The notes beneath the pieces are model-generated. The model searched no databases. It was given only the letters and a program-made list of their open reading frames with translations, and was not told the DNA's origin. A DNA stretch of 64,000 nt from Shigella phage KNP5: sequence record KX452698; one strand, 5' to 3'. Made by a program: the position numbers and the translations under genes. This document shows, piece by piece, positions 1 through 42,926 of the stretch. Position 1 is the stretch's first letter, and every line of letters starts with the position of its first letter.

Positions 1-774
1 TGCATATTTTGGTGCTAAAGCTCTGAGCTGTTTAACATCTTTATTTTTGAGAGACTCAAGAACATCATCAATAGCACCACGATCGTTAGTAACCAGTGAT
101 AAAATACCAGCATCCAAAACACCTTTAGATGAATAACTATCGAGCTCACCAATAGTTTTACGAAAATCAGGAAAATTCTTTTTAACCAAAGCTGCTACAA
201 CTTTCATATCAGCTATAGCAATTCCTTCATGCTTGCAGATTTCAGTCAATCGACGAATCATCTGCTTCATCATTTCAATTTTATCTTCATCGGTCGGTTG
301 ACCGAATGTAATAACTCGGCAGCGTGACTGAAGCGGTTTAATAATACCATCAATATTGTTAGCAGTAATAATAATACTACAGTTTGAACTATAAGCTTCC
401 ATAAAGGAACGAAGATGTCGCTGAGACTCTGCTAACCCTGAACGGTCAAATTCATCAATAACGATTACTTTTTGACGACCATCAAATGAAGCTGCACTAG
501 CAAAATTAGTCAAAGGACCACGAACGAAATCAATTTTACAATCTGATCCATTCACAAACATCATATCAGCATTTACATCATGACACAATGCTTTTGCTAC
601 AGTTGTTTTACCTGTTCCTGGAGAAGGAGAATGAAGAATAATATGTGGAATTTTACCTTTACTTGTAATAGATTTAAAGGTTTCTTTATCAAAGGCGGGA
701 AGAATACATTCATCGATAGTAGATGGACGATATTTCTGTTCAAGAATGTGTTCTTTTTCATTTACAGTAATCAT
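1..774 (-). CDS. 44: Clamp loader subunit gp44 (AAA+), first 258 codons; 3' end lies beyond window edge
   Basis: ATG at 772-774 with GAGG RBS; translation MITVNEKEHILEQKYRPS..., P-loop SPSPGTGKTT, Walker B VIVIDEFD; sits 3' of gene 45 as in T4. Confidence 0.9.
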   Translation of the reverse strand, partial: MITVNEKEHILEQKYRPSTIDECILPAFDKETFKSITSKGKIPHIILHSPSPGTGKTTVAKALCHDVNADMMFVNGSDCKIDFVRGPLTNFASAASFDGRQKVIVIDEFDRSGLAESQRHLRSFMEAYSSNCSIIITANNIDGIIKPLQSRCRVITFGQPTDEDKIEMMKQMIRRLTEICKHEGIAIADMKVVAALVKKNFPDFRKTIGELDSYSSKGVLDAGILSLVTNDRGAIDDVLESLKNKDVKQLRALAPKYA

Positions 775-2208: not shown

Positions 2209-3891
2209 TTAAACCATTACAGTAAATCGACCAACTTTCTTCATTTGAAGATGCTGACCATATTCTTGCGGGTCATGGTCTTTATGCGAAATTATAAAAA
2301 CATTAGTATTTTTCATTGAATTTATAATATTAGCTACACCTTTAATACCTTCGGCATCAAATGACCCATCAAACACTTCATCGAGTATTAATGTACTAAT
2401 ACTAACACCAGATACAATAGAAGCAATATCACGCCAAGTAAATAAAAGAGCAATATCAATTCGTGCTTTTTCACCTTCACTAAATGAAGCATAACTAAAA
2501 TCTTCACGACCGCGGGATTTAATTGTCTCATTAAATTCTTCATCTAATGTAAACACATAATCCGCTTCCATTATTTTAAGATAATGGTTAATCTGCTTAT
2601 TAAATAATGGAATGTACTTTTTAATGATAGCACCTTTAATACCAGAATCTTTTAGCATATCAGTCAAAATTCCTCTATGGTATTTTTCCATTACTAAATT
2701 AGTTTTTGTCTTAACAATTTTATCAAGTTCTTCTTGAAGCAGTGCTATTTCATCAGCATGGTCAATAAACTCGGATGATGCTTTTTCTATAGCTGCTTTA
2801 ACTTTTTTAGCTTTATCTACCGTCGTGATTAGAGATTGCTTTTTATTGCGAATATCATTCGCCAACGTCTGCTGGGTTTTAATATTATCTCGGTATTCAT
2901 CAACGAGAACTTTTAAATTATCACGATGTGTTGAAAGCTGTTCAAACGAATGCGTGCATTCAGAAACTTTATCTTTAATTTTAGAAACAACTTTATCACC
3001 GGAACTTAATTGCGACAAACAGGTTGGACATAATCCACCTTCGTGATACATATTAATGACTTTATTATACGAGTCAATTTTTGATTTAATTAAAAATGCT
3101 TCTTGACCGATTTTATTAAATGCATCAGTCGGGTCTTCATCCAAAACAATATTAACTAGTCTTTCATTAGCTTCTTCTATTTCCGATTTTAGCGTTCTAG
3201 CTTCTTTTGCCAAATCATCATACATATTCTGTAGACGAGTAAGGTTGTCACCAGTTAATTTTTTCTGGCGTTCAACGTTATCATTATATATTTTAATTTG
3301 TTGGATAATACTATCTTTTTTAACATCAAGCACTTGGTTTTGTGAATTTAATTCACGTATTAGTGCTTTATTAAGCTTATCCATTTCAGCTAATGTTCCT
3401 ACCTCGAGCAGGTCTTCCACAAGCTTTCTTCGTGCAGGGGTCGACAAACCCATGAAAGGGGTATACCCTGCTGTACCAAGGACAACAATCTGCTTGAAAC
3501 TGGCATATGACATTCCGATAAGCTGTTCAAATTCTGCTTGGAAATCTTTACTGCTGGCAGATTCATTAAGACGTGTACCGTTAACGGTGATTTCGAAAAC
3601 ATTCGGTTTTTGTCCTCTTTTGATATAGTACTTTTTCTCATCATATTCCATCCACAGTTCAACTAAAAGTTCTTTCTTATTCGTGCTGTTTATTAATTGA
3701 CCTTTCTTTACATCACGGAATGGCTTGCCAAAAAGCCCAAACGTGATGGCTTCTAACATAGTAGACTTACCACCACCATTTCGGCCAGTAATAAGAGTTT
3801 TTTGAACCTTATCTAGTTGAATGTCAATAGGATTTCCACCTACTGACATTATATTTTGATACCTAACTCGGTTTAGTTTAAAATTCTTCAC
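2209..3891 (-). CDS. 46: Recombination endonuclease subunit gp46 (Rad50/SbcC-like ATPase, 560 aa)
   Basis: Walker A GRNGGGKST at N-terminus, long coiled-coil middle, C-terminal signature/Walker B region; length equals T4 gp46. Confidence 0.95.
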   Translation of the reverse strand: MKNFKLNRVRYQNIMSVGGNPIDIQLDKVQKTLITGRNGGGKSTMLEAITFGLFGKPFRDVKKGQLINSTNKKELLVELWMEYDEKKYYIKRGQKPNVFEITVNGTRLNESASSKDFQAEFEQLIGMSYASFKQIVVLGTAGYTPFMGLSTPARRKLVEDLLEVGTLAEMDKLNKALIRELNSQNQVLDVKKDSIIQQIKIYNDNVERQKKLTGDNLTRLQNMYDDLAKEARTLKSEIEEANERLVNIVLDEDPTDAFNKIGQEAFLIKSKIDSYNKVINMYHEGGLCPTCLSQLSSGDKVVSKIKDKVSECTHSFEQLSTHRDNLKVLVDEYRDNIKTQQTLANDIRNKKQSLITTVDKAKKVKAAIEKASSEFIDHADEIALLQEELDKIVKTKTNLVMEKYHRGILTDMLKDSGIKGAIIKKYIPLFNKQINHYLKIMEADYVFTLDEEFNETIKSRGREDFSYASFSEGEKARIDIALLFTWRDIASIVSGVSISTLILDEVFDGSFDAEGIKGVANIINSMKNTNVFIISHKDHDPQEYGQHLQMKKVGRFTVMV

Positions 3892-5354: not shown

Positions 5355-5831
5355 GGTGTCTTTTCCATCCTAATTTAGCTGCTTTTGAAACCAGTTCTTT
5401 AATTTTTCCTTTTGTCCATTCAGGACCAGGAGGTTCATGACATAACATTTGCTTAACTCCGTTATTATACCATTTTTTACCTTTATTATGTGATGAAGCT
5501 TTAAATTTATTTGACCTTCCTTTTACATAACCTTTTGGAATATAAGGCAAAAAGGNNNNNNNNNNNNNNNNNNNNNNNNNNNNNNNNNNNNNNNNNNNNN
5601 NNNNNNNNNNNNNNNNNNNNNNNNNNNNNNNNNNNNNNNNNNNNNNNNNNNNNNTGAATCAAATAAGTGAGGATTATCTGAAAGCTCTTTATTATAAATT
5701 TTCTTATACTTTTTAGATAAAACTGAACCATGATATCCAGCTAAATGCCTATCTAAAGACGTAGATCCAATATAAAAAGGAGGAAGTTTATCTCCACTAT
5801 ATATTGTTAAATAAGTTATATATTTTTTCAT
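5332..5831 (-). CDS. GIY-YIG-like ORF (possible seg-type free-standing homing endonuclease) broken by a 99-N gap
   Basis: N-terminal fragment KKYITYLTIYSGDKLPPFYIGSTSLDRHLAGYHG resembles the GIY...YIG...R...H nuclease motif; basic C-terminal fragment on other side of gap in a different frame. Confidence 0.35.
5556..5654. other. Run of 99 N (assembly gap or masked sequence)
   Basis: Direct observation; ORF calls crossing it are unreliable. Confidence 0.99.
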
Positions 5832-5992: not shown

Positions 5993-6008
5993 AAGGGCCG
6001 AAGCCCTT
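5993..6008 (-). terminator. GC stem-loop (GGGC-UUCG-GCCC) 3' of a-gt
   Basis: Inverted repeat gggccgaagccc followed on transcript by TTTAGCTTTAT. Confidence 0.45.
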
Positions 6009-7210
6009 TATTTTGTAATAATGTCAAACTGTTCTTTAAAGCAGAAGCTTGAATCTTGATGCTGATACAAAAATTCATAAGCTTTTTCGCGTTCACGGTC
6101 ATAAAGAGCTCGGTCAGATGACAGTTCTTTAATACGTTCAAATGTTGATTCCATGTCATTTTCATCAAACCAAACGATACCGCTATCATGTGAAATTAAC
6201 GGAGTATTATCAACACGGAATTTTAAATTTTCGCCAGTAGATTTCCAAAATACCGGAATTGTTCCGCACGCACCAAGCTCGAGATGAGTATATTCTAAAG
6301 AACGTTGTAGATATTTTTTGTCCAACTTACTCAACTGATAACCAAATCCGGATTTACTCATGCGTTCAAGCATTTCGCTATTTACATAACGGTCGAGAAT
6401 TTGCGTTGGCAAATTAGGAGCAATTTTAATTTGGTCTACTTGATGAAGACGATAATACTCGTATGGAATTCCTTTTTCTTTAATAGGAATGAACGCTGGA
6501 GAACGTTCCAGACCTTCCATAATAGTACTTAGTCCAGCAGGTTTAAGATGTTTTTCGTGAAAATCAAACATCTGATAAAAGCCTTTCCATGTAGTCGTAC
6601 GACCGATCCAACGGTTGACATTCATATTAATTTCAGAAACATCTTTCCAGTAGGTTGATCGAACCTTCGCAATATCCATAGGAGGCTGAAAGTTGTATAC
6701 GGTCGGTGCTTCTTCAATATCATCAAACAGAGAAACTATTTCTGGATACCATTCTTTCATCAAAACTTTATTAAAATCACCATTATCAGAATGGCTAAAA
6801 ATAACATCAGCACGACGAACAGTTTCTTCTAATCCCAAATTTCGACGTAAAGAAAGAGAAGAATGGTCATGTTGATAAACTACAACACGAACCGAAGGTT
6901 TAATGTTATCAATAATTTTTTTATAGTTATTAATAGTGTCTTCTTCTACTGAAGTAGCAGGAACTGAATTGATAATTAGAATATCACAATCATTTACCAG
7001 CTTAAGTGTTTTATCGTATTCTTTTGCCAATAAAACCGGAATTGAAAATGATTTATAATCATGCGCACAATTACGGGTAAATGATTTATCTTTAGCATAA
7101 ACCAAAGTTACTTCATGACCATTTTTAATAAACCAATCACGCTGCTCGAGAGAAAATTTAGTTACGCCGCAACCTTCAAGACCTCGAGCCATAAAAATAC
7201 ATACTTTCAT
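6008..7210 (-). CDS. a-gt: DNA alpha-glucosyltransferase (400 aa)
   Basis: ORF MKVCIFMARGLEGCGVTKFSLEQRDWFIKNGHEV...QFDIITK, same length and colinear with T4 a-gt as recalled. Confidence 0.95.
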   Translation of the reverse strand: MKVCIFMARGLEGCGVTKFSLEQRDWFIKNGHEVTLVYAKDKSFTRNCAHDYKSFSIPVLLAKEYDKTLKLVNDCDILIINSVPATSVEEDTINNYKKIIDNIKPSVRVVVYQHDHSSLSLRRNLGLEETVRRADVIFSHSDNGDFNKVLMKEWYPEIVSLFDDIEEAPTVYNFQPPMDIAKVRSTYWKDVSEINMNVNRWIGRTTTWKGFYQMFDFHEKHLKPAGLSTIMEGLERSPAFIPIKEKGIPYEYYRLHQVDQIKIAPNLPTQILDRYVNSEMLERMSKSGFGYQLSKLDKKYLQRSLEYTHLELGACGTIPVFWKSTGENLKFRVDNTPLISHDSGIVWFDENDMESTFERIKELSSDRALYDREREKAYEFLYQHQDSSFCFKEQFDIITK

Positions 7211-31926: not shown

Positions 31927-32104
31927 CTAAACGAATAGGTTCATGAATGCCATATCCTTGAACAGAAATTTCTGTCGTAGGATAAATTCCATCAATATCA
32001 CCCATGGTCCACGCTTCATTAAATTGCTGTTCGCCTGAATTACTAAACCACTCGGCGAAAGCATTTAACACATCTTTAGAACCTTCAATAATTATCTTTG
32101 CCAT
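31883..32104 (-). CDS. Hypothetical protein (73 aa)
   Basis: Minus-strand ORF directly 3' of grcA-like gene. Confidence 0.45.
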   Translation of the reverse strand: MAKIIIEGSKDVLNAFAEWFSNSGEQQFNEAWTMGDIDGIYPTTEISVQGYGIHEPIRLVEYDLCTGEEVKYD

Positions 32105-32466
32105 TACAAGCTCTCAGTAAAGGTACGAGCGATAACGTCGCGCTGCTGTTCCGGAGTCAGAGAGTTAAAGCGAACTGCATAACCGGATACACGGATGGTC
32201 AGCTGCGGATATTTTTCCGGATGCTTAACTGCATCTTCCAGAGTTTCACGACGCAGAACGTTAACGTTCAGGTGTTGACCACCTTCAATTTTAACTGTAG
32301 GCTGTGGTTCAATTTCAATTTCACGGGTGTGCAAACCGTAGAAAATTTCTGGGTCTACAAAAGAGTCCTCTTTAAAGGTTTTAGAAACAATAATTCGTGC
32401 TTGAATACCATCTTCAAAATAAATAGTACCTTTATGTGTGCCTTCAAGAATTTGATATGCTTTCAT
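32104..32466 (-). CDS. Autonomous glycyl-radical cofactor GrcA/YfiD-like protein (120 aa)
   Basis: C-terminal ...[33 protein letters not shown] glycyl-radical motif; this half is much more GC-rich than surrounding phage DNA. Confidence 0.8.
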
Positions 32467-32472
32467 ATAACC

Positions 32473-32802
32473 TCAATTAGAAAATAAATTTATCCAAGAC
32501 TGTTCTTTAATTAAAAATGGCTCAGAATCATATGCCATTAAACTTTGGGTGATTAGTCCTTTAAAAGGTCCATCAATAAATTCCATGGTAAAATATGGAA
32601 TTTTATTCATTAATCTTGCATTAGGAGCAGTACACAAAACTCTGCATCCTTTGAATACACCTTTTTGTAATTTGTATTGCTTAGGATAAAATTCGCTCAA
32701 GACGTTGTTATTTGCCAAAATTTCAAAATGATTCACCAATTTATTTTTAATAGTTTTTGGCGAAAAATAAAGATATTCGAAAAGCTGTGTGTCTGTCATC
32801 AT
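32473..32802 (-). CDS. Hypothetical protein (109 aa from ATG 32800-32802)
   Basis: ATGA coupling to upstream P-loop gene. Confidence 0.45.
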   Translation of the reverse strand: MMTDTQLFEYLYFSPKTIKNKLVNHFEILANNNVLSEFYPKQYKLQKGVFKGCRVLCTAPNARLMNKIPYFTMEFIDGPFKGLITQSLMAYDSEPFLIKEQSWINLFSN

Positions 32803-33386
32803 TGCATTCCGATTACGAAAAACTGCGGACGAGTAATACCACCAGTGCAACATTTACTATTGCAACAGTATTGTACAGTTTCAATATGAATATCGTAAAT
32901 TTTATCCATATCGGGAGATTTAACCGGCTCATCGATTATATACAAAATCCGCGAAAGCGATAAACCTCTGAACTTGCTGCCTCTATTACCGATAAAACTA
33001 CGGACAGAATCAGTAAATAAACGAAAACGTATATCATCACTAGAATAACGAGAAAATTCTTTTTTAATGTGGCCTGCAGAAATTTTAGCGTAAGCTGAAG
33101 TATTAGAAAGAACAATAACTGTTCCACCGTCATACAGCCAATTAGCAGCAAAGTTAGTCACAGCAGTTGATTTACCGGATTGACGTCCACCATCTAGTCG
33201 AAGTGTGCAATACTGTTTGAGTAAGTCTTCAAATGGTAGGATATAATCGTTTTTACAAATTTCTTCTACTCTAGCATCAGAATGGTATGTAAAAGCATTC
33301 ATCAGGGATAGATAAGGACCAGTTAAAAATGTTCTCATTTTATTCTCTCTAAATTTGGGCCATTCCATGGCGCATGAATTGTCCAT
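32799..33386 (-). CDS. Small P-loop NTPase (195 aa)
   Basis: Walker A GGRQSGKST, Walker B ILYIIDEP. Confidence 0.55.
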   Translation of the reverse strand: MDNSCAMEWPKFRENKMRTFLTGPYLSLMNAFTYHSDARVEEICKNDYILPFEDLLKQYCTLRLDGGRQSGKSTAVTNFAANWLYDGGTVIVLSNTSAYAKISAGHIKKEFSRYSSDDIRFRLFTDSVRSFIGNRGSKFRGLSLSRILYIIDEPVKSPDMDKIYDIHIETVQYCCNSKCCTGGITRPQFFVIGMQ

Positions 33387-33491
33387 TTCTGTATTTACCC
33401 ATTACCGCACTTGGGCTCGACCTTATTACAGGTTGGCGGGAATCCCTCATAGAATCATGAGGTCCAGCTTGTTCCCATATTTCTTATTTGC

Positions 33492-33965
33492 TTATTTGAA
33501 TGATTTGACGTACTGAATAGAGCCTTTGCTATTCACGAAAGCGATTTTACCATTTTTGTTATACATGGTAGCAGTACGCTGATAACCATAAGTTTGTTTA
33601 CCAGATTGATAACCAACTAATGCAAAATTATCTTCACCCATTTTATTCTGCTTCGCGCGGATACGTTCATGACCATGTGCCATAAGAACCTTAGCGTCGC
33701 CAGTTGCAATGGATCTACGAGTTTTTTCATCTTCAACTGTATTAACAAAGTCGTCAAATGAATCAAATTTAGCGTGAGATTTATTATACAGTTTTCCATC
33801 TACTGCATAATTATATCCCTGTACATCCATCTCAACTTCTGTACCATCATCCAATACAGCAGTGATTTTTTGACCTTTTTTAAATTTCAAAAGATCAGTA
33901 AAAGATTCAGCGATAATTTGAGAATTAATAGCTGCTTCAGTGATAAATTCTTGATATGTTTTCAT
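33492..33965 (-). CDS. Internal-protein-like head protein with capsid-targeting leader (157 aa)
   Basis: N-terminus MKTYQEFITE-A matches T4 internal-protein CTS and prohead protease site. Confidence 0.6.
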   Translation of the reverse strand: MKTYQEFITEAAINSQIIAESFTDLLKFKKGQKITAVLDDGTEVEMDVQGYNYAVDGKLYNKSHAKFDSFDDFVNTVEDEKTRRSIATGDAKVLMAHGHERIRAKQNKMGEDNFALVGYQSGKQTYGYQRTATMYNKNGKIAFVNSKGSIQYVKSFK

Positions 33966-33974
33966 GTGTTTCCT

Positions 33975-34391
33975 TTAAATGTAAATAGTTTTACCGTAGT
34001 ATTTATACCAGTGTGGCTTCATTAAAATTTTTTCATCGAGTCGTTGTTGACTCAACTTAATAGCTGATTTGCATGGATTATAATCATTTTTCCATTCTGC
34101 TGGAATATCGCTGATGTCAGGAACTTCAGTATCTTTTATATTAAACCCACGTTTTAAGCATTCCGTTATAATGTCTGATTGACGCTTTCGCAAAAATTCT
34201 AACTTATCATAAAAGAACGTAACATGACCAGAGCCTAAAATAAACTCGGAAGATATTTTAAAATCTTTAACCCGCTTACCATTTGCAACATGTTTACGAA
34301 CTATACCAAAAACACGCGGCAGTTCACGGTATTCTGCGATTAAATGTTGATCAGCAAGTTCAGATACTAAAGTCAAATTAATACGAGTCAT
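33975..34391 (-). CDS. denV: Endonuclease V, pyrimidine-dimer DNA glycosylase (138 aa)
   Basis: [28 protein letters not shown]...; same length as T4 DenV. Confidence 0.9.
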
Positions 34392-34450
34392 TTTATCCCT
34401 CCAAGTAACTGTGAATATACTATCACAGTTCTAGAAGAAAGTAAACAACT

Positions 34451-34981
<531 letters not shown>

Positions 34982-35437
34982 TTAAAAGAGGCTGTTCATT
35001 ATTCGGTAAAGTGAAGGACCCATCACATATTGCCACTGAGTACGAGGAATAAGGGCAAAAGCATCCATCTCTGGAATCATAACACCATCTTTATTTTCAA
35101 AATAAGACTCGCAATGGCAATTTCTAAACATCTCATGCTCTACTGGAATCGTATAATAAAATAACTGTAAGTCTTTATTACTAGAATATTTAAATACACC
35201 TAGGTCTTCTAGAAGGTCTGAATTATAATCGATAAAACCAGTCTCTTCTGAGCATTCTCTTTTTGCAGCTTCCAGTGCATTCAAATCAGAACTTTCTACA
35301 CGGCCCTTTGGAATATCCCAGCGATGTGCCATCATTCCAGGTTTACGAGAACCAGTAACTCGTCCCATAAATAAATCTTTATCTTCTGTCATAAAGATAA
35401 TACCAGCTGATAATGTTTTCATTTTAATTTCCTGCAT
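34982..35437 (-). CDS. nudE: Nudix hydrolase (151 aa)
   Basis: Nudix box GRVESSDLNALEAAKRECSEETG. Confidence 0.8.
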   Translation of the reverse strand: MQEIKMKTLSAGIIFMTEDKDLFMGRVTGSRKPGMMAHRWDIPKGRVESSDLNALEAAKRECSEETGFIDYNSDLLEDLGVFKYSSNKDLQLFYYTIPVEHEMFRNCHCESYFENKDGVMIPEMDAFALIPRTQWQYVMGPSLYRIMNSLF

Positions 35438-40202: not shown

Positions 40203-40219
40203 ATTTTCCTCACTTAATT

Positions 40220-40295
40220 GGTCGAGACAGTAGGGATCGAACCTACGACCTAGGACTTAGAAGGTCCTTGCTCTTCCTTCTGAGCTATGCCTCGT
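40220..40295 (-). tRNA. tRNA-Arg (anticodon UCU), CCA encoded
   Basis: Cloverleaf folded by hand; anticodon loop CUUCUAA; T-arm GUAGGUUCGAUCCCUAC. Confidence 0.8.
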
Positions 40296-40299
40296 ATTT

Positions 40300-40374
40300 G
40301 GCGGACATGCATGGATTCGAACCATGGACCAATTGATTAACAGTCAACTGCTCTACCACTGAGCTACACATCCA
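40300..40374 (-). tRNA. tRNA-Asn (anticodon GUU), CCA encoded
   Basis: Acceptor GGAUGUG/CAUGUCC, anticodon loop CUGUUAA, T-loop GGUUCGAAUCC. Confidence 0.7.
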
Positions 40375-40378
40375 AATT

Positions 40379-40465
40379 GGTGGGGAGTGATGGAGTCGAA
40401 CCACCCGAGTCGCAATGACAATGGATTTACAGTCCACACCGCTACCTCTACGGGATAACTCCCCT
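40379..40465 (-). tRNA. tRNA-Tyr (anticodon GUA), long variable arm, CCA encoded
   Basis: Acceptor GGGGAGU/ACUCCCC, anticodon loop CUGUAAA, class II extra arm. Confidence 0.7.
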
Positions 40466-40477
40466 AATTCTTAATTT

Positions 40478-40552
40478 GGTGGCCCTGGGTGGAATTGAAC
40501 CACCATCTGGCGATTATGAGTCGCTTGCTTGAACCTTCCAGCTACAGGGCCT
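40478..40552 (-). tRNA. tRNA-Ile (anticodon CAU, probably lysidine-modified; tRNA-Met not excluded)
   Basis: Perfect acceptor GGCCCUG/CAGGGCC; anticodon loop CUCAUAA; adjacent to tRNA-Thr as in the T4 Thr-Ile dimer. Confidence 0.75.
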
Positions 40553-40553
40553 T

Positions 40554-40629
40554 GGTGCTGATTGACGGAATCGAACCGCCGACCTTCTCATTACAAGTGA
40601 GTTGCTCTACCTACTGAGCTAAATCAGCA
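40554..40629 (-). tRNA. tRNA-Thr (anticodon UGU)
   Basis: Acceptor GCUGAUU/AAUCAGC; anticodon loop CUUGUAA. Confidence 0.8.
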
Positions 40630-40634
40630 AAACT

Positions 40635-40724
40635 GGCGGAGGCGATAGGATTTGAACCTATGAGTCGCCGGAGCGACTGCCGGTTTTCAAGACCGGTGCA
40701 TTAAACCACTCTGCCACGCCTCCA
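40635..40724 (-). tRNA. tRNA-Ser (anticodon UGA), long variable arm
   Basis: Acceptor GGAGGCG/CGCCUCC; anticodon loop CUUGAAA. Confidence 0.8.
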
Positions 40725-40726
40725 GT

Positions 40727-40800
40727 CTCCATACAAGGATTTGAACCTTGGACCTCCTGATCCCAAATCAGGCGCTCTACCAAACTGAGCTACACGGAGT
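40727..40800 (-). tRNA. tRNA-Pro (anticodon UGG), CCA not encoded
   Basis: C1-G72 acceptor; anticodon loop UUUGGGA; 2 nt from tRNA-Ser (dimeric precursor arrangement). Confidence 0.75.
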
Positions 40801-40809
40801 AAATTAAAT

Positions 40810-40884
<75 letters not shown>

Positions 40885-40889
40885 AATTT

Positions 40890-40976
40890 GGTGCGAGAAG
40901 TGGGACTCGAACCCACAAGGAAATCATTCCGCAGCATTTTAAGTGCTGTGCCTTTACCAATTTGACCATTCTCGCG
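40890..40976 (-). tRNA. tRNA-Leu (anticodon UAA), long variable arm
   Basis: Acceptor GCGAGAA/UUCUCGC; anticodon loop CUUAAAA. Confidence 0.8.
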
Positions 40977-40977
40977 C

Positions 40978-41050
40978 TGGGAATAAAGGACTCGAACCTT
41001 TGCATCCTGGAATCAAAATCCAGTGCCTTACCAACTTGGCTAATTCCCAA
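40978..41050 (-). tRNA. tRNA-Gln (anticodon UUG), CCA not encoded
   Basis: U1-A72 acceptor UGGGAAU/AUUCCCA; anticodon loop UUUUGAU; 1 nt from tRNA-Leu. Confidence 0.75.
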
Positions 41051-41415: not shown

Positions 41416-41514
41416 NNNNNNNNNNNNNNNNNNNNNNNNNNNNNNNNNNNNNNNNNNNNNNNNNNNNNNNNNNNNNNNNNNNNNNNNNNNNNNNNNNNNN
41501 NNNNNNNNNNNNNN
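41416..41514. other. Run of 99 N (assembly gap or masked sequence)
   Basis: Direct observation; identical length to the gap at 5556-5654. Confidence 0.99.
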
Positions 41515-42668: not shown

Positions 42669-42926
42669 TTATTTTAAATCTTCTAATCGTTTCTTCATCT
42701 TAGAACCATTTTTAGCAATTTCTCCTGCATCGGAGCATAATGCTAAAAGTGCTTTAACTTTAGTTTGGTCTCCTTTAAAAGATGAAGGATCGACTGCAGC
42801 AGCAAGTTCTTTAATACGAGAGAAAAGACGCTCAGCTTCAGCTAAAGCCATTCCAAGCTTTACTTCCATACCGTGAGAAGATTCAGTGATAGTGGTTTTT
42901 GTAGCAAACTCTTTGAAAGTTTTCAT
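42669..42926 (-). CDS. Internal-protein-like head protein with capsid-targeting leader (85 aa), at the T4 ipI position
   Basis: N-terminus MKTFKEFATK...; directly 3' of 57B and its own early promoter. Confidence 0.55.
   Translation of the reverse strand: MKTFKEFATKTTITESSHGMEVKLGMALAEAERLFSRIKELAAAVDPSSFKGDQTKVKALLALCSDAGEIAKNGSKMKKRLEDLK

Follow-up and report, generated by a model that had tools for sequence, protein, structure and literature searches.

The minus-strand gene directly downstream of denV in Shigella phage KNP5 (KX452698; the window below is the whole 64,000-nucleotide stretch that was analysed) is, on sequence comparison, almost certainly ip4 (IpIV). This gene, already catalogued and widely annotated, codes for one of the internal proteins that are polymorphic among T-even phages. 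Its product opens with a genuine capsid-targeting leader set in a gp21 cleavage context, so that the internal-protein class named in the original prediction stands. The features of the gene and its surroundings are collected in Table 1.

Table 1. Coordinates of ip4, its subregions, its neighbors, and other features of the window (the arrow marks a gp21-type cleavage position)
Feature	Position	Strand	Description	Basis
ip4 (IpIV) CDS	33492..33965	(-)	157-aa precursor, 17.8 kDa, pI 8.9	ORF list, Pfam, PHROG, T2 match
Capsid-targeting sequence MKTYQEFITE, with gp21 motif I-T-E↓A at its end	33936..33965	(-)	Codons 1-10	9/10 as T4 IPII/IPIII
Variable linker ending in second motif I-A-E↓S	33906..33935	(-)	Codons 11-20; predicted second site
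Predicted mature domain S21-K157	33495..33905	(-)	137 aa, 15.5 kDa, pI 9.3
5′ UTR and Shine-Dalgarno block TATTTACATTTAAAGGAAACAC	33966..33987	(-)	Common to T4 ipII	Comparison with T4 ipII, ipIII and T2 ip4
Putative late-promoter element TATAAATA	34000..34007	(-)	Inside the denV 3′ end, 34 nt ahead of the ip4 ATG	T4 late-promoter -10 consensus
denV (endonuclease V)	33975..34391	(-)	Directly upstream of ip4	Pfam Pyr_excise, PHROG 1183
e-denV intergenic block	34392..34450	(-)	Early promoter and stem-loop (PeSL-type)	Sequence comparison
Hairpin CCTCATGATTCTATGAGG	33445..33462	(-)	In the conserved right-hand junction block	Sequence comparison
nudE	34982..35437	(-)
e (lysozyme)	34451..34945	(-)
vs.8 homolog	32799..33386	(-)		PHROG 1488
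vs.6 homolog	32104..32466	(-)	C-terminal glycyl-radical domain	Pfam Gly_radical, E 2.6e-18
DNA alpha-glucosyltransferase	6008..7210	(-)		Pfam AGT, E 3e-235
Second leader-bearing ORF	42669..42926	(-)	85 aa, MKTFKEFATKTTITE↓SSHG	PHROG 3499 'internal head protein', E 1e-49
tRNA cluster	40219..41049	(-)	Ten genes
Run of exactly 99 N	5556..5654
Run of exactly 99 N	41416..41514

Identity and family of the gene

The 157-aa ORF, whose translation opens MKTYQEFITEAAINSQIIAESF and whose product begins MKTYQEFITEAAINS, is recovered end to end by the Pfam family DUF7412 (PF24183; E 5.7e-96, 319.4 bits against a gathering cut-off of 27; residues 1-157 aligned to profile positions 1-158 of 158) and over its full length by PHROG 3155, 'internal virion protein' (E 6e-102). 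The protein had been put forward as a novel variant; it is instead identical to T2 IpIV (UniProt A0A2Z5WKT6) and 99% identical to Ip4 of phage K3 (UniProt Q38388). Proteins 100% identical to that of the window are likewise encoded by RB3, RB18 and RB33 (tblastn) and, in the BASEL collection, by bas43_0232 and bas44_0237, and the exact sequence is present on 459 contigs under the UniRef name 'IpIV internal head protein', with a T2 entry as representative. The record of phage Sf21 annotates its homolog as 'similar to phage T2 Ip4', and several phage records matched by tblastn carry the names Ip4, ipIV or 'internal head protein 4'. The name has been in the sequence databases for years, with Pfam and PHROG families of its own and annotations in hundreds of genomes. 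It belongs to a polymorphic set of 'at least 10' T-even internal proteins (Repoila et al. 1994, as cited in PMC12373910).

The frame is truly coding and under strict purifying selection, the window gene differing from that of T2 by 22 synonymous and no non-synonymous substitutions (pN = 0, pS = 0.23) and from that of Sf21 by nine synonymous and, again, no non-synonymous ones. By tblastn, Ip4 is found in 469 records of the phage collection searched, 289 of them at least 99% identical, as against 261 records for T4 IPIII, whose homologs are spread over 80-95% identity; Ip4 is hence much the more conserved of the two. Its close homologs share 49 invariant columns.

The family is very small. A profile search of 1.84 billion representatives returned only seven proteins, which leaves Ip4 without a link to any larger family, and a follow-up search with one remote homolog (P0016) retrieved only P0016 itself. 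Three of the seven are metagenomic homologs with 35-39% identity, two of which bear a leader of the form MNF(E/K)xFLNE↓S. Metagenomic DUF7412 homologs of this kind (positions 139..1215 of L007, from JGI metagenome 3300044579, and 181..654 of L006) represent unsequenced phage lineages; one of the two has a denV-like gene directly upstream, and in the other a terminator hairpin and a pair of TATAAATA motifs stand ahead of the gene.

The invariant columns of the close homologs include His, Asp and Glu residues, on which an enzymatic reading was considered; it was dropped, as these residues are lost in the homologs with 35-39% identity. With the remote homologs included, what remains invariant is chiefly G, N, K, A, Q, Y and T, and this lack of catalytic-looking positions fits a binder better than an enzyme. 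The fold offers no functional clue: the family profile run against solved structures (PDB) gave nothing convincing (four matches, E 0.5-1.2), Foldseek against the viral models of BFVD found Ip4 of Enterobacteria phage K3 (Q38388) as the sole neighbor, and PADLOC and NCBIfam models produced only noise. Our searches of the literature for Ip4, ipIV and DUF7412 recovered no functional study, the one match drawing on T2 ipIV solely as a non-variable repeat control.

A modular locus between e and vs.8

The minus-strand gene order in the window is nudE, e, denV, ip4, vs.8, vs.7 and vs.6. The gene therefore does lie 3′ of denV and not between denV and e, as had been noted from the DNA itself; the placement is nonetheless an ordinary one, for this is the standard polymorphic internal-protein locus bounded by e and vs.8, and about 193 records share the order e-denV-ip4-vs.8. 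T4, with the order vs.8-denV-ipII-ipIII-e as against vs.8-ip4-denV-e in the window, fills the interval with PeSL-ipIII-PeSL-ipII-PeSL-denV; T2 fills it with PeSL-ip4, encoding the same protein as the window directly after e and without the denV that the window has between the two; Bas37 has denV only and no ip4; and the window, along with those roughly 193 other records, has PeSL-denV-ip4. The ip4 genes of Gelderlandvirus and Jiaodavirus begin at, or overlap with, the end of the lysozyme gene e, and the metagenomic homolog with 35% identity has a denV-like gene directly upstream as well. Salmonella phage vB_SenM-AKM_NP4 (Gelderlandvirus; L004) has a three-gene internal-protein array near e, in which ip4 has a leader-bearing ORF on either side (272..538 and 3561..3824), the two coding for proteins of 88 aa (MKTYQEFINE↓S) and 87 aa (MKTYEEFINE↓S).

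Repoila and colleagues are said to have described, in 1994, ten internal-protein ORFs with a conserved leader and with 70-nt promoter/inverted-repeat blocks on their flanks. At the present locus, the PeSL block between e and denV is the same block that stands ahead of ipIII in T4 and of ip4 in T2. On the other side, the right-hand junction block, GGGAACAA(C/G)CTGGACCTCATGA, is common to the window, T4 and T2, lying 3′ of denV in T4 and 3′ of ip4 in T2 and the window. The Shine-Dalgarno and 5′-UTR block of ip4 hardly differs from its T4 ipII counterpart, and the last codons of denV together with its stop codon lie within it: the window codons ACT ATT TAC ATT TAA form part of the block TATTTACATTTAAAGGAAACA, found ahead of ipII in T4, and DenV consequently ends in KTIYI in the window versus KAIYA in T4. 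These shared junctions fit the published PeSL model, in which modules are shuffled by way of conserved promoter-terminator motifs (PMC4122927). The RNA structure predicted for the spacer 3′ of ip4 is unremarkable (whole-spacer fold energy z = -0.28), and no Rfam family other than tRNAs was detected near the gene.

The denV gene directly upstream is probably co-transcribed with ip4. A late promoter for ip4 may also lie inside denV, where the window codons TGG TAT AAA TAC generate a match to the T4 late-promoter consensus; T4 denV reads TACAAATA at the same codons, a synonymous TAC Tyr codon abolishing the motif, whereas Sf21 denV carries it too, and one remote ip4 homolog has two such motifs at most 40 nt upstream of its start. 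The position of ip4 right next to e in Gelderlandvirus and Jiaodavirus would likewise accord with late expression. A scan for sigma-70-type promoters gave nothing specific.

Over the 2-kb stretch around ip4, the window matches Escherichia phage KNP1 (a Tequatrovirus whose record is an unverified draft) at 100% identity, and numerous T-even phages of Shigella and Escherichia at 96-99%. The two runs of N in the window, each of exactly the same length, are assembly gaps or masking, as would suit a KNP1 record with the draft status 'UNVERIFIED'; ORFs of the trna.2 region are interrupted by the second. The tRNA cluster of the window encodes Arg, Asn, Tyr, Met, Thr, Ser, Pro, Gly, Leu and Gln tRNAs, compared with eight tRNA genes in T4; it has the Asn, Tyr and Met genes, with neither an Ile gene nor the segB homing endonuclease. 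Among the neighbors of ip4, the vs.8 homolog has a Walker-A-like GRQSGKST motif and weak matches to the terminase large-subunit N-terminal ATPase and the PtuA AAA ATPase; its label in some GenBank records, 'large terminase subunit', looks over-annotated. The vs.6 homolog is GrcA-like, as in the T4 annotation.

Leader, cleavage motifs, and predicted packaging

The first ten residues of Ip4 are identical at nine positions to the MKTYQEFIAE↓A leader of T4 IPII and IPIII, the sole difference (A9T) falling at the free X position of the motif L/I-X-E, after which the gp21 protease cleaves (PMC9026906). Mutational work on IPIII assigned residues 4 and 7 to targeting and residues 8 and 10 to processing (PMC9026906), and all four determinants are kept in Ip4 as Y4, F7, I8 and E10. 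The alignment with the T4 proteins thus upholds the leader proposed at the outset, and I8-T9-E10↓A, read from the sequence, likewise agrees with the prohead-protease context proposed with it. In a six-frame scan of 127,936 positions, the ip4 leader was the only match of at least 7/10 in the window. Across the Ip4 family M1, K2, F7 and E10 are nearly invariant, and the leader is retained even where overall identity drops to 61-71%, in homologs of phages of Klebsiella, Salmonella and Serratia.

A second motif, (L/I/M)-x-E↓(S/A), occurs at residues 19-21 in all 13 of the full-length close homologs (61-99% identical), among which the ten residues preceding it vary. In the window its tripeptide, I18-A19-E20↓S, is one that gp21 cuts in T4 IPII and IPIII. 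A cleavage-type motif of this kind at residue 20 sets Ip4 apart from those two proteins. The conserved second site at residues 20/21 points to a propeptide of 20 residues, close in length to that of T4 IPI, which has 19 residues and ends I-T-E↓A. The mature protein would then be S21-K157; the predicted mature form of Ip4 is small and basic (15.5-16.5 kDa, pI 9.1-9.3).

As had been anticipated, the 157-aa protein differs in size from T4 IPII (100 aa) and IPIII (193 aa), and its body resembles none of T4 IPI, IPII and IPIII (leaderless BLASTP E-values above 0.2). What it shares with IPII and IPIII is the locus between e and vs.8, the leader and a small basic character, while the mature bodies are unrelated. 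T4 IPI, in turn, has a compact fold without known relatives, in which it resembles Ip4, but differs in its locus between 57B and the tRNA genes, its MKTFKEF leader and its unrelated 76-aa body.

The packaging machinery itself is present. KNP1, from which it was read since the corresponding genes lie outside the window and KNP1 is 100% identical over the 2-kb probe around ip4, encodes gp21, gp22 and gp68 that are 99.5%, 98.9% and 98.3% identical to those of T4. Given the near-identity of gp21 and gp22, gp21 should trim the Ip4 leader. In T4, ten leader residues are enough to package foreign proteins into heads (PMC9026906). Packaging or cleavage experiments, proteomic data and N-terminal data for Ip4 were looked for in the searchable literature, with no returns. 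By analogy with the T4 proteins, we consider it very probable that Ip4 is packaged into the head and processed.

The leader could alternatively be a mere scar of the recombination that shuffles these cassettes, on a protein that is cytoplasmic, early and never packaged, as its coding DNA and the 5′ UTR both belong to the homology blocks that mediate the shuffling and, in the window, ip4 is without an early promoter block belonging to it alone. This we regard as very improbable: homologs whose DNA has long diverged still keep the leader in their protein, and it is kept in another form in the remote metagenomic ones, the two protease motifs are conserved around a linker that varies, and the sufficiency of the 10-residue leader for packaging foreign cargo in T4 speaks against it as well.

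We therefore return to a packaged Ip4 and, drawing on what is established for T4 IPIII, IPII and IPI, propose the following course. The 157-aa precursor would be synthesized late in infection, with early synthesis also possible by read-through from the promoter ahead of denV. Its capsid-targeting sequence would dock it onto the scaffolding core of the assembling prohead, where gp21 would remove the leader after Glu10 and probably after Glu20 too. The basic mature protein (~15.5 kDa) would stay in the head with the DNA and then be ejected into the cell alongside it.

A largely structural role for such a protein, in neutralizing DNA charge or aiding packaging and ejection with no specific host target, would suit its basic character (pI 9.3, 17 Lys in 137 aa) and the precedent of T4, where the head houses about 1000 internal-protein molecules, whose lysines make contact with DNA phosphates (PMC3012670). 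We judge such a role to be quite unlikely as its main one: a well-ordered fold with many invariant non-basic residues of surface type (G, Y, N, Q, T) exceeds what charge neutralization needs, phages without any internal protein at the e-vs.8 locus exist (Bas37), and T4 internal proteins formerly considered structural now have specific targets.

Possible host target of Ip4

An injected anti-defense role, the standing hypothesis of the field for all internal proteins, is plausible for Ip4 by analogy. T4 IPI/IPI*, an inhibitor of GmrSD-CT596, is encapsidated and injected, and IPIII is active from the host cytoplasm without its leader, complementing a host-specific plating defect. For Ip1, Ip2 and Ip3 inhibition extends to a single GmrSD variant apiece, without cross-protection (PMC12373910); ip4 shares its cassette locus with ip2 and ip3, and mature Ip4, once the leader is removed, has no sequence similarity to the Ip1, Ip2 or Ip3 bodies of T4. 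That the targets of internal proteins extend beyond GmrSD is indicated by Bas37_0260, a leader-bearing accessory protein of a Tequatrovirus internal-protein locus that inhibits McrBC (bioRxiv 10.1101/2025.11.20.689424); it is akin to Ip4 in these respects, but has 77 aa and belongs to the ipI locus. The window has no counterpart of it, only 70 nt separating trna.4 from the second leader-bearing ORF.

That ORF lies in the ipI locus between 57B and trna.4, belongs to no Pfam family, has a body unrelated to T4 IPI and corresponds in length and position to bas37_0261, disruption of which gives a log2FC of -2.09 in a single one of the HIDEN-SEQ comparisons. The Bas37 arrangement is e-denV-vs.8 without ip4, and the HIDEN-SEQ tables thus hold no fitness entry for Ip4.

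The alpha-glucosyltransferase gene of the window implies that the phage makes DNA with glucosylated hydroxymethylcytosine, and the organism names listed for Ip4 records are also listed for records of dCMP hydroxymethylase. Klebsiella contributes 135 Ip4 and 137 dCMP-hydroxymethylase records, with PKO111 having both genes; Aeromonas, with 48 of the 771 dCMP-hydroxymethylase records, is absent among the Ip4 matches listed.

On these analogies, it is an even question whether Ip4 acts on a host defense system. When ip4-10 were assayed against 15 GmrSD groups, no reproducible inhibition was observed (PMC12373910), and T2, with exactly the same Ip4, is restricted by GmrSD-ECOR21 and GmrSD-ECOR17 (PMC12373910), the very enzymes that T4 IPII and IPIII inhibit; the GmrSD enzyme of UTI89 restricts T2 too. 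Moreover, Ip4 is conserved far above what would be expected of an arms-race inhibitor (pN of 0 and 289/469 records at or above 99%, against 80-95% for IPIII homologs), which points to a different, more conserved target. We tentatively propose, with more doubt than confidence, that Ip4 neutralizes a target other than GmrSD, either a modification-dependent nuclease of another class (McrBC-, Mrr- or PvuRts1I-like, for example) or a conserved host factor common to Escherichia, Klebsiella, Salmonella and Serratia, by means of a fold without known relatives.

The same conservation might instead mark an injected take-over effector that, like Alt, acts on a conserved housekeeping factor of the host in place of a variable defense. 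Its extreme degree within Tequatrovirus, with pN at zero, the 61-71% identity of homologs from no fewer than four genera that differ in host, the 49 invariant columns and the uniformly negative GmrSD tests would all be in keeping with such an effector. We nevertheless find this unlikely, in that ip4 is dispensable and polymorphic for presence and absence (T4 and Bas37 are without it), all the leader-bearing proteins of the two loci with known function (Ip1, Ip2, Ip3 and Bas37_0260) inhibit type IV enzymes, and neither an enzyme fold nor conserved catalytic residues were found in Ip4.

In the anti-defense reading that we prefer, Ip4 would, once in the cell, most likely be a stoichiometric binder that disarms a first-line defense against glucosyl-hydroxymethylcytosine DNA, the best guess for its target being a modification-dependent (type IV) restriction nuclease outside the GmrSD variants tested so far. 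The pathway taken whole, from leader-directed packaging through gp21 processing and ejection to the anti-defense binder, has in our estimate slightly better than even prospects.

As a discovery the gene carries little weight, being already named and in a common arrangement; the worthwhile experimental question is its host target. Four leader-bearing proteins of the two internal-protein loci are now paired with type IV restriction enzymes, and Ip4 is still an orphan, which makes it a reasonable next target in the search for a new pair of defense and counter-defense systems, with tractable carriers in T2 and in Bas43 and Bas44 of the BASEL collection. Should the target prove to lie outside GmrSD, then no other occupant of the internal-protein site next to e would be as old or as widespread as Ip4, and the T4 genes ipII and ipIII would be later replacements.
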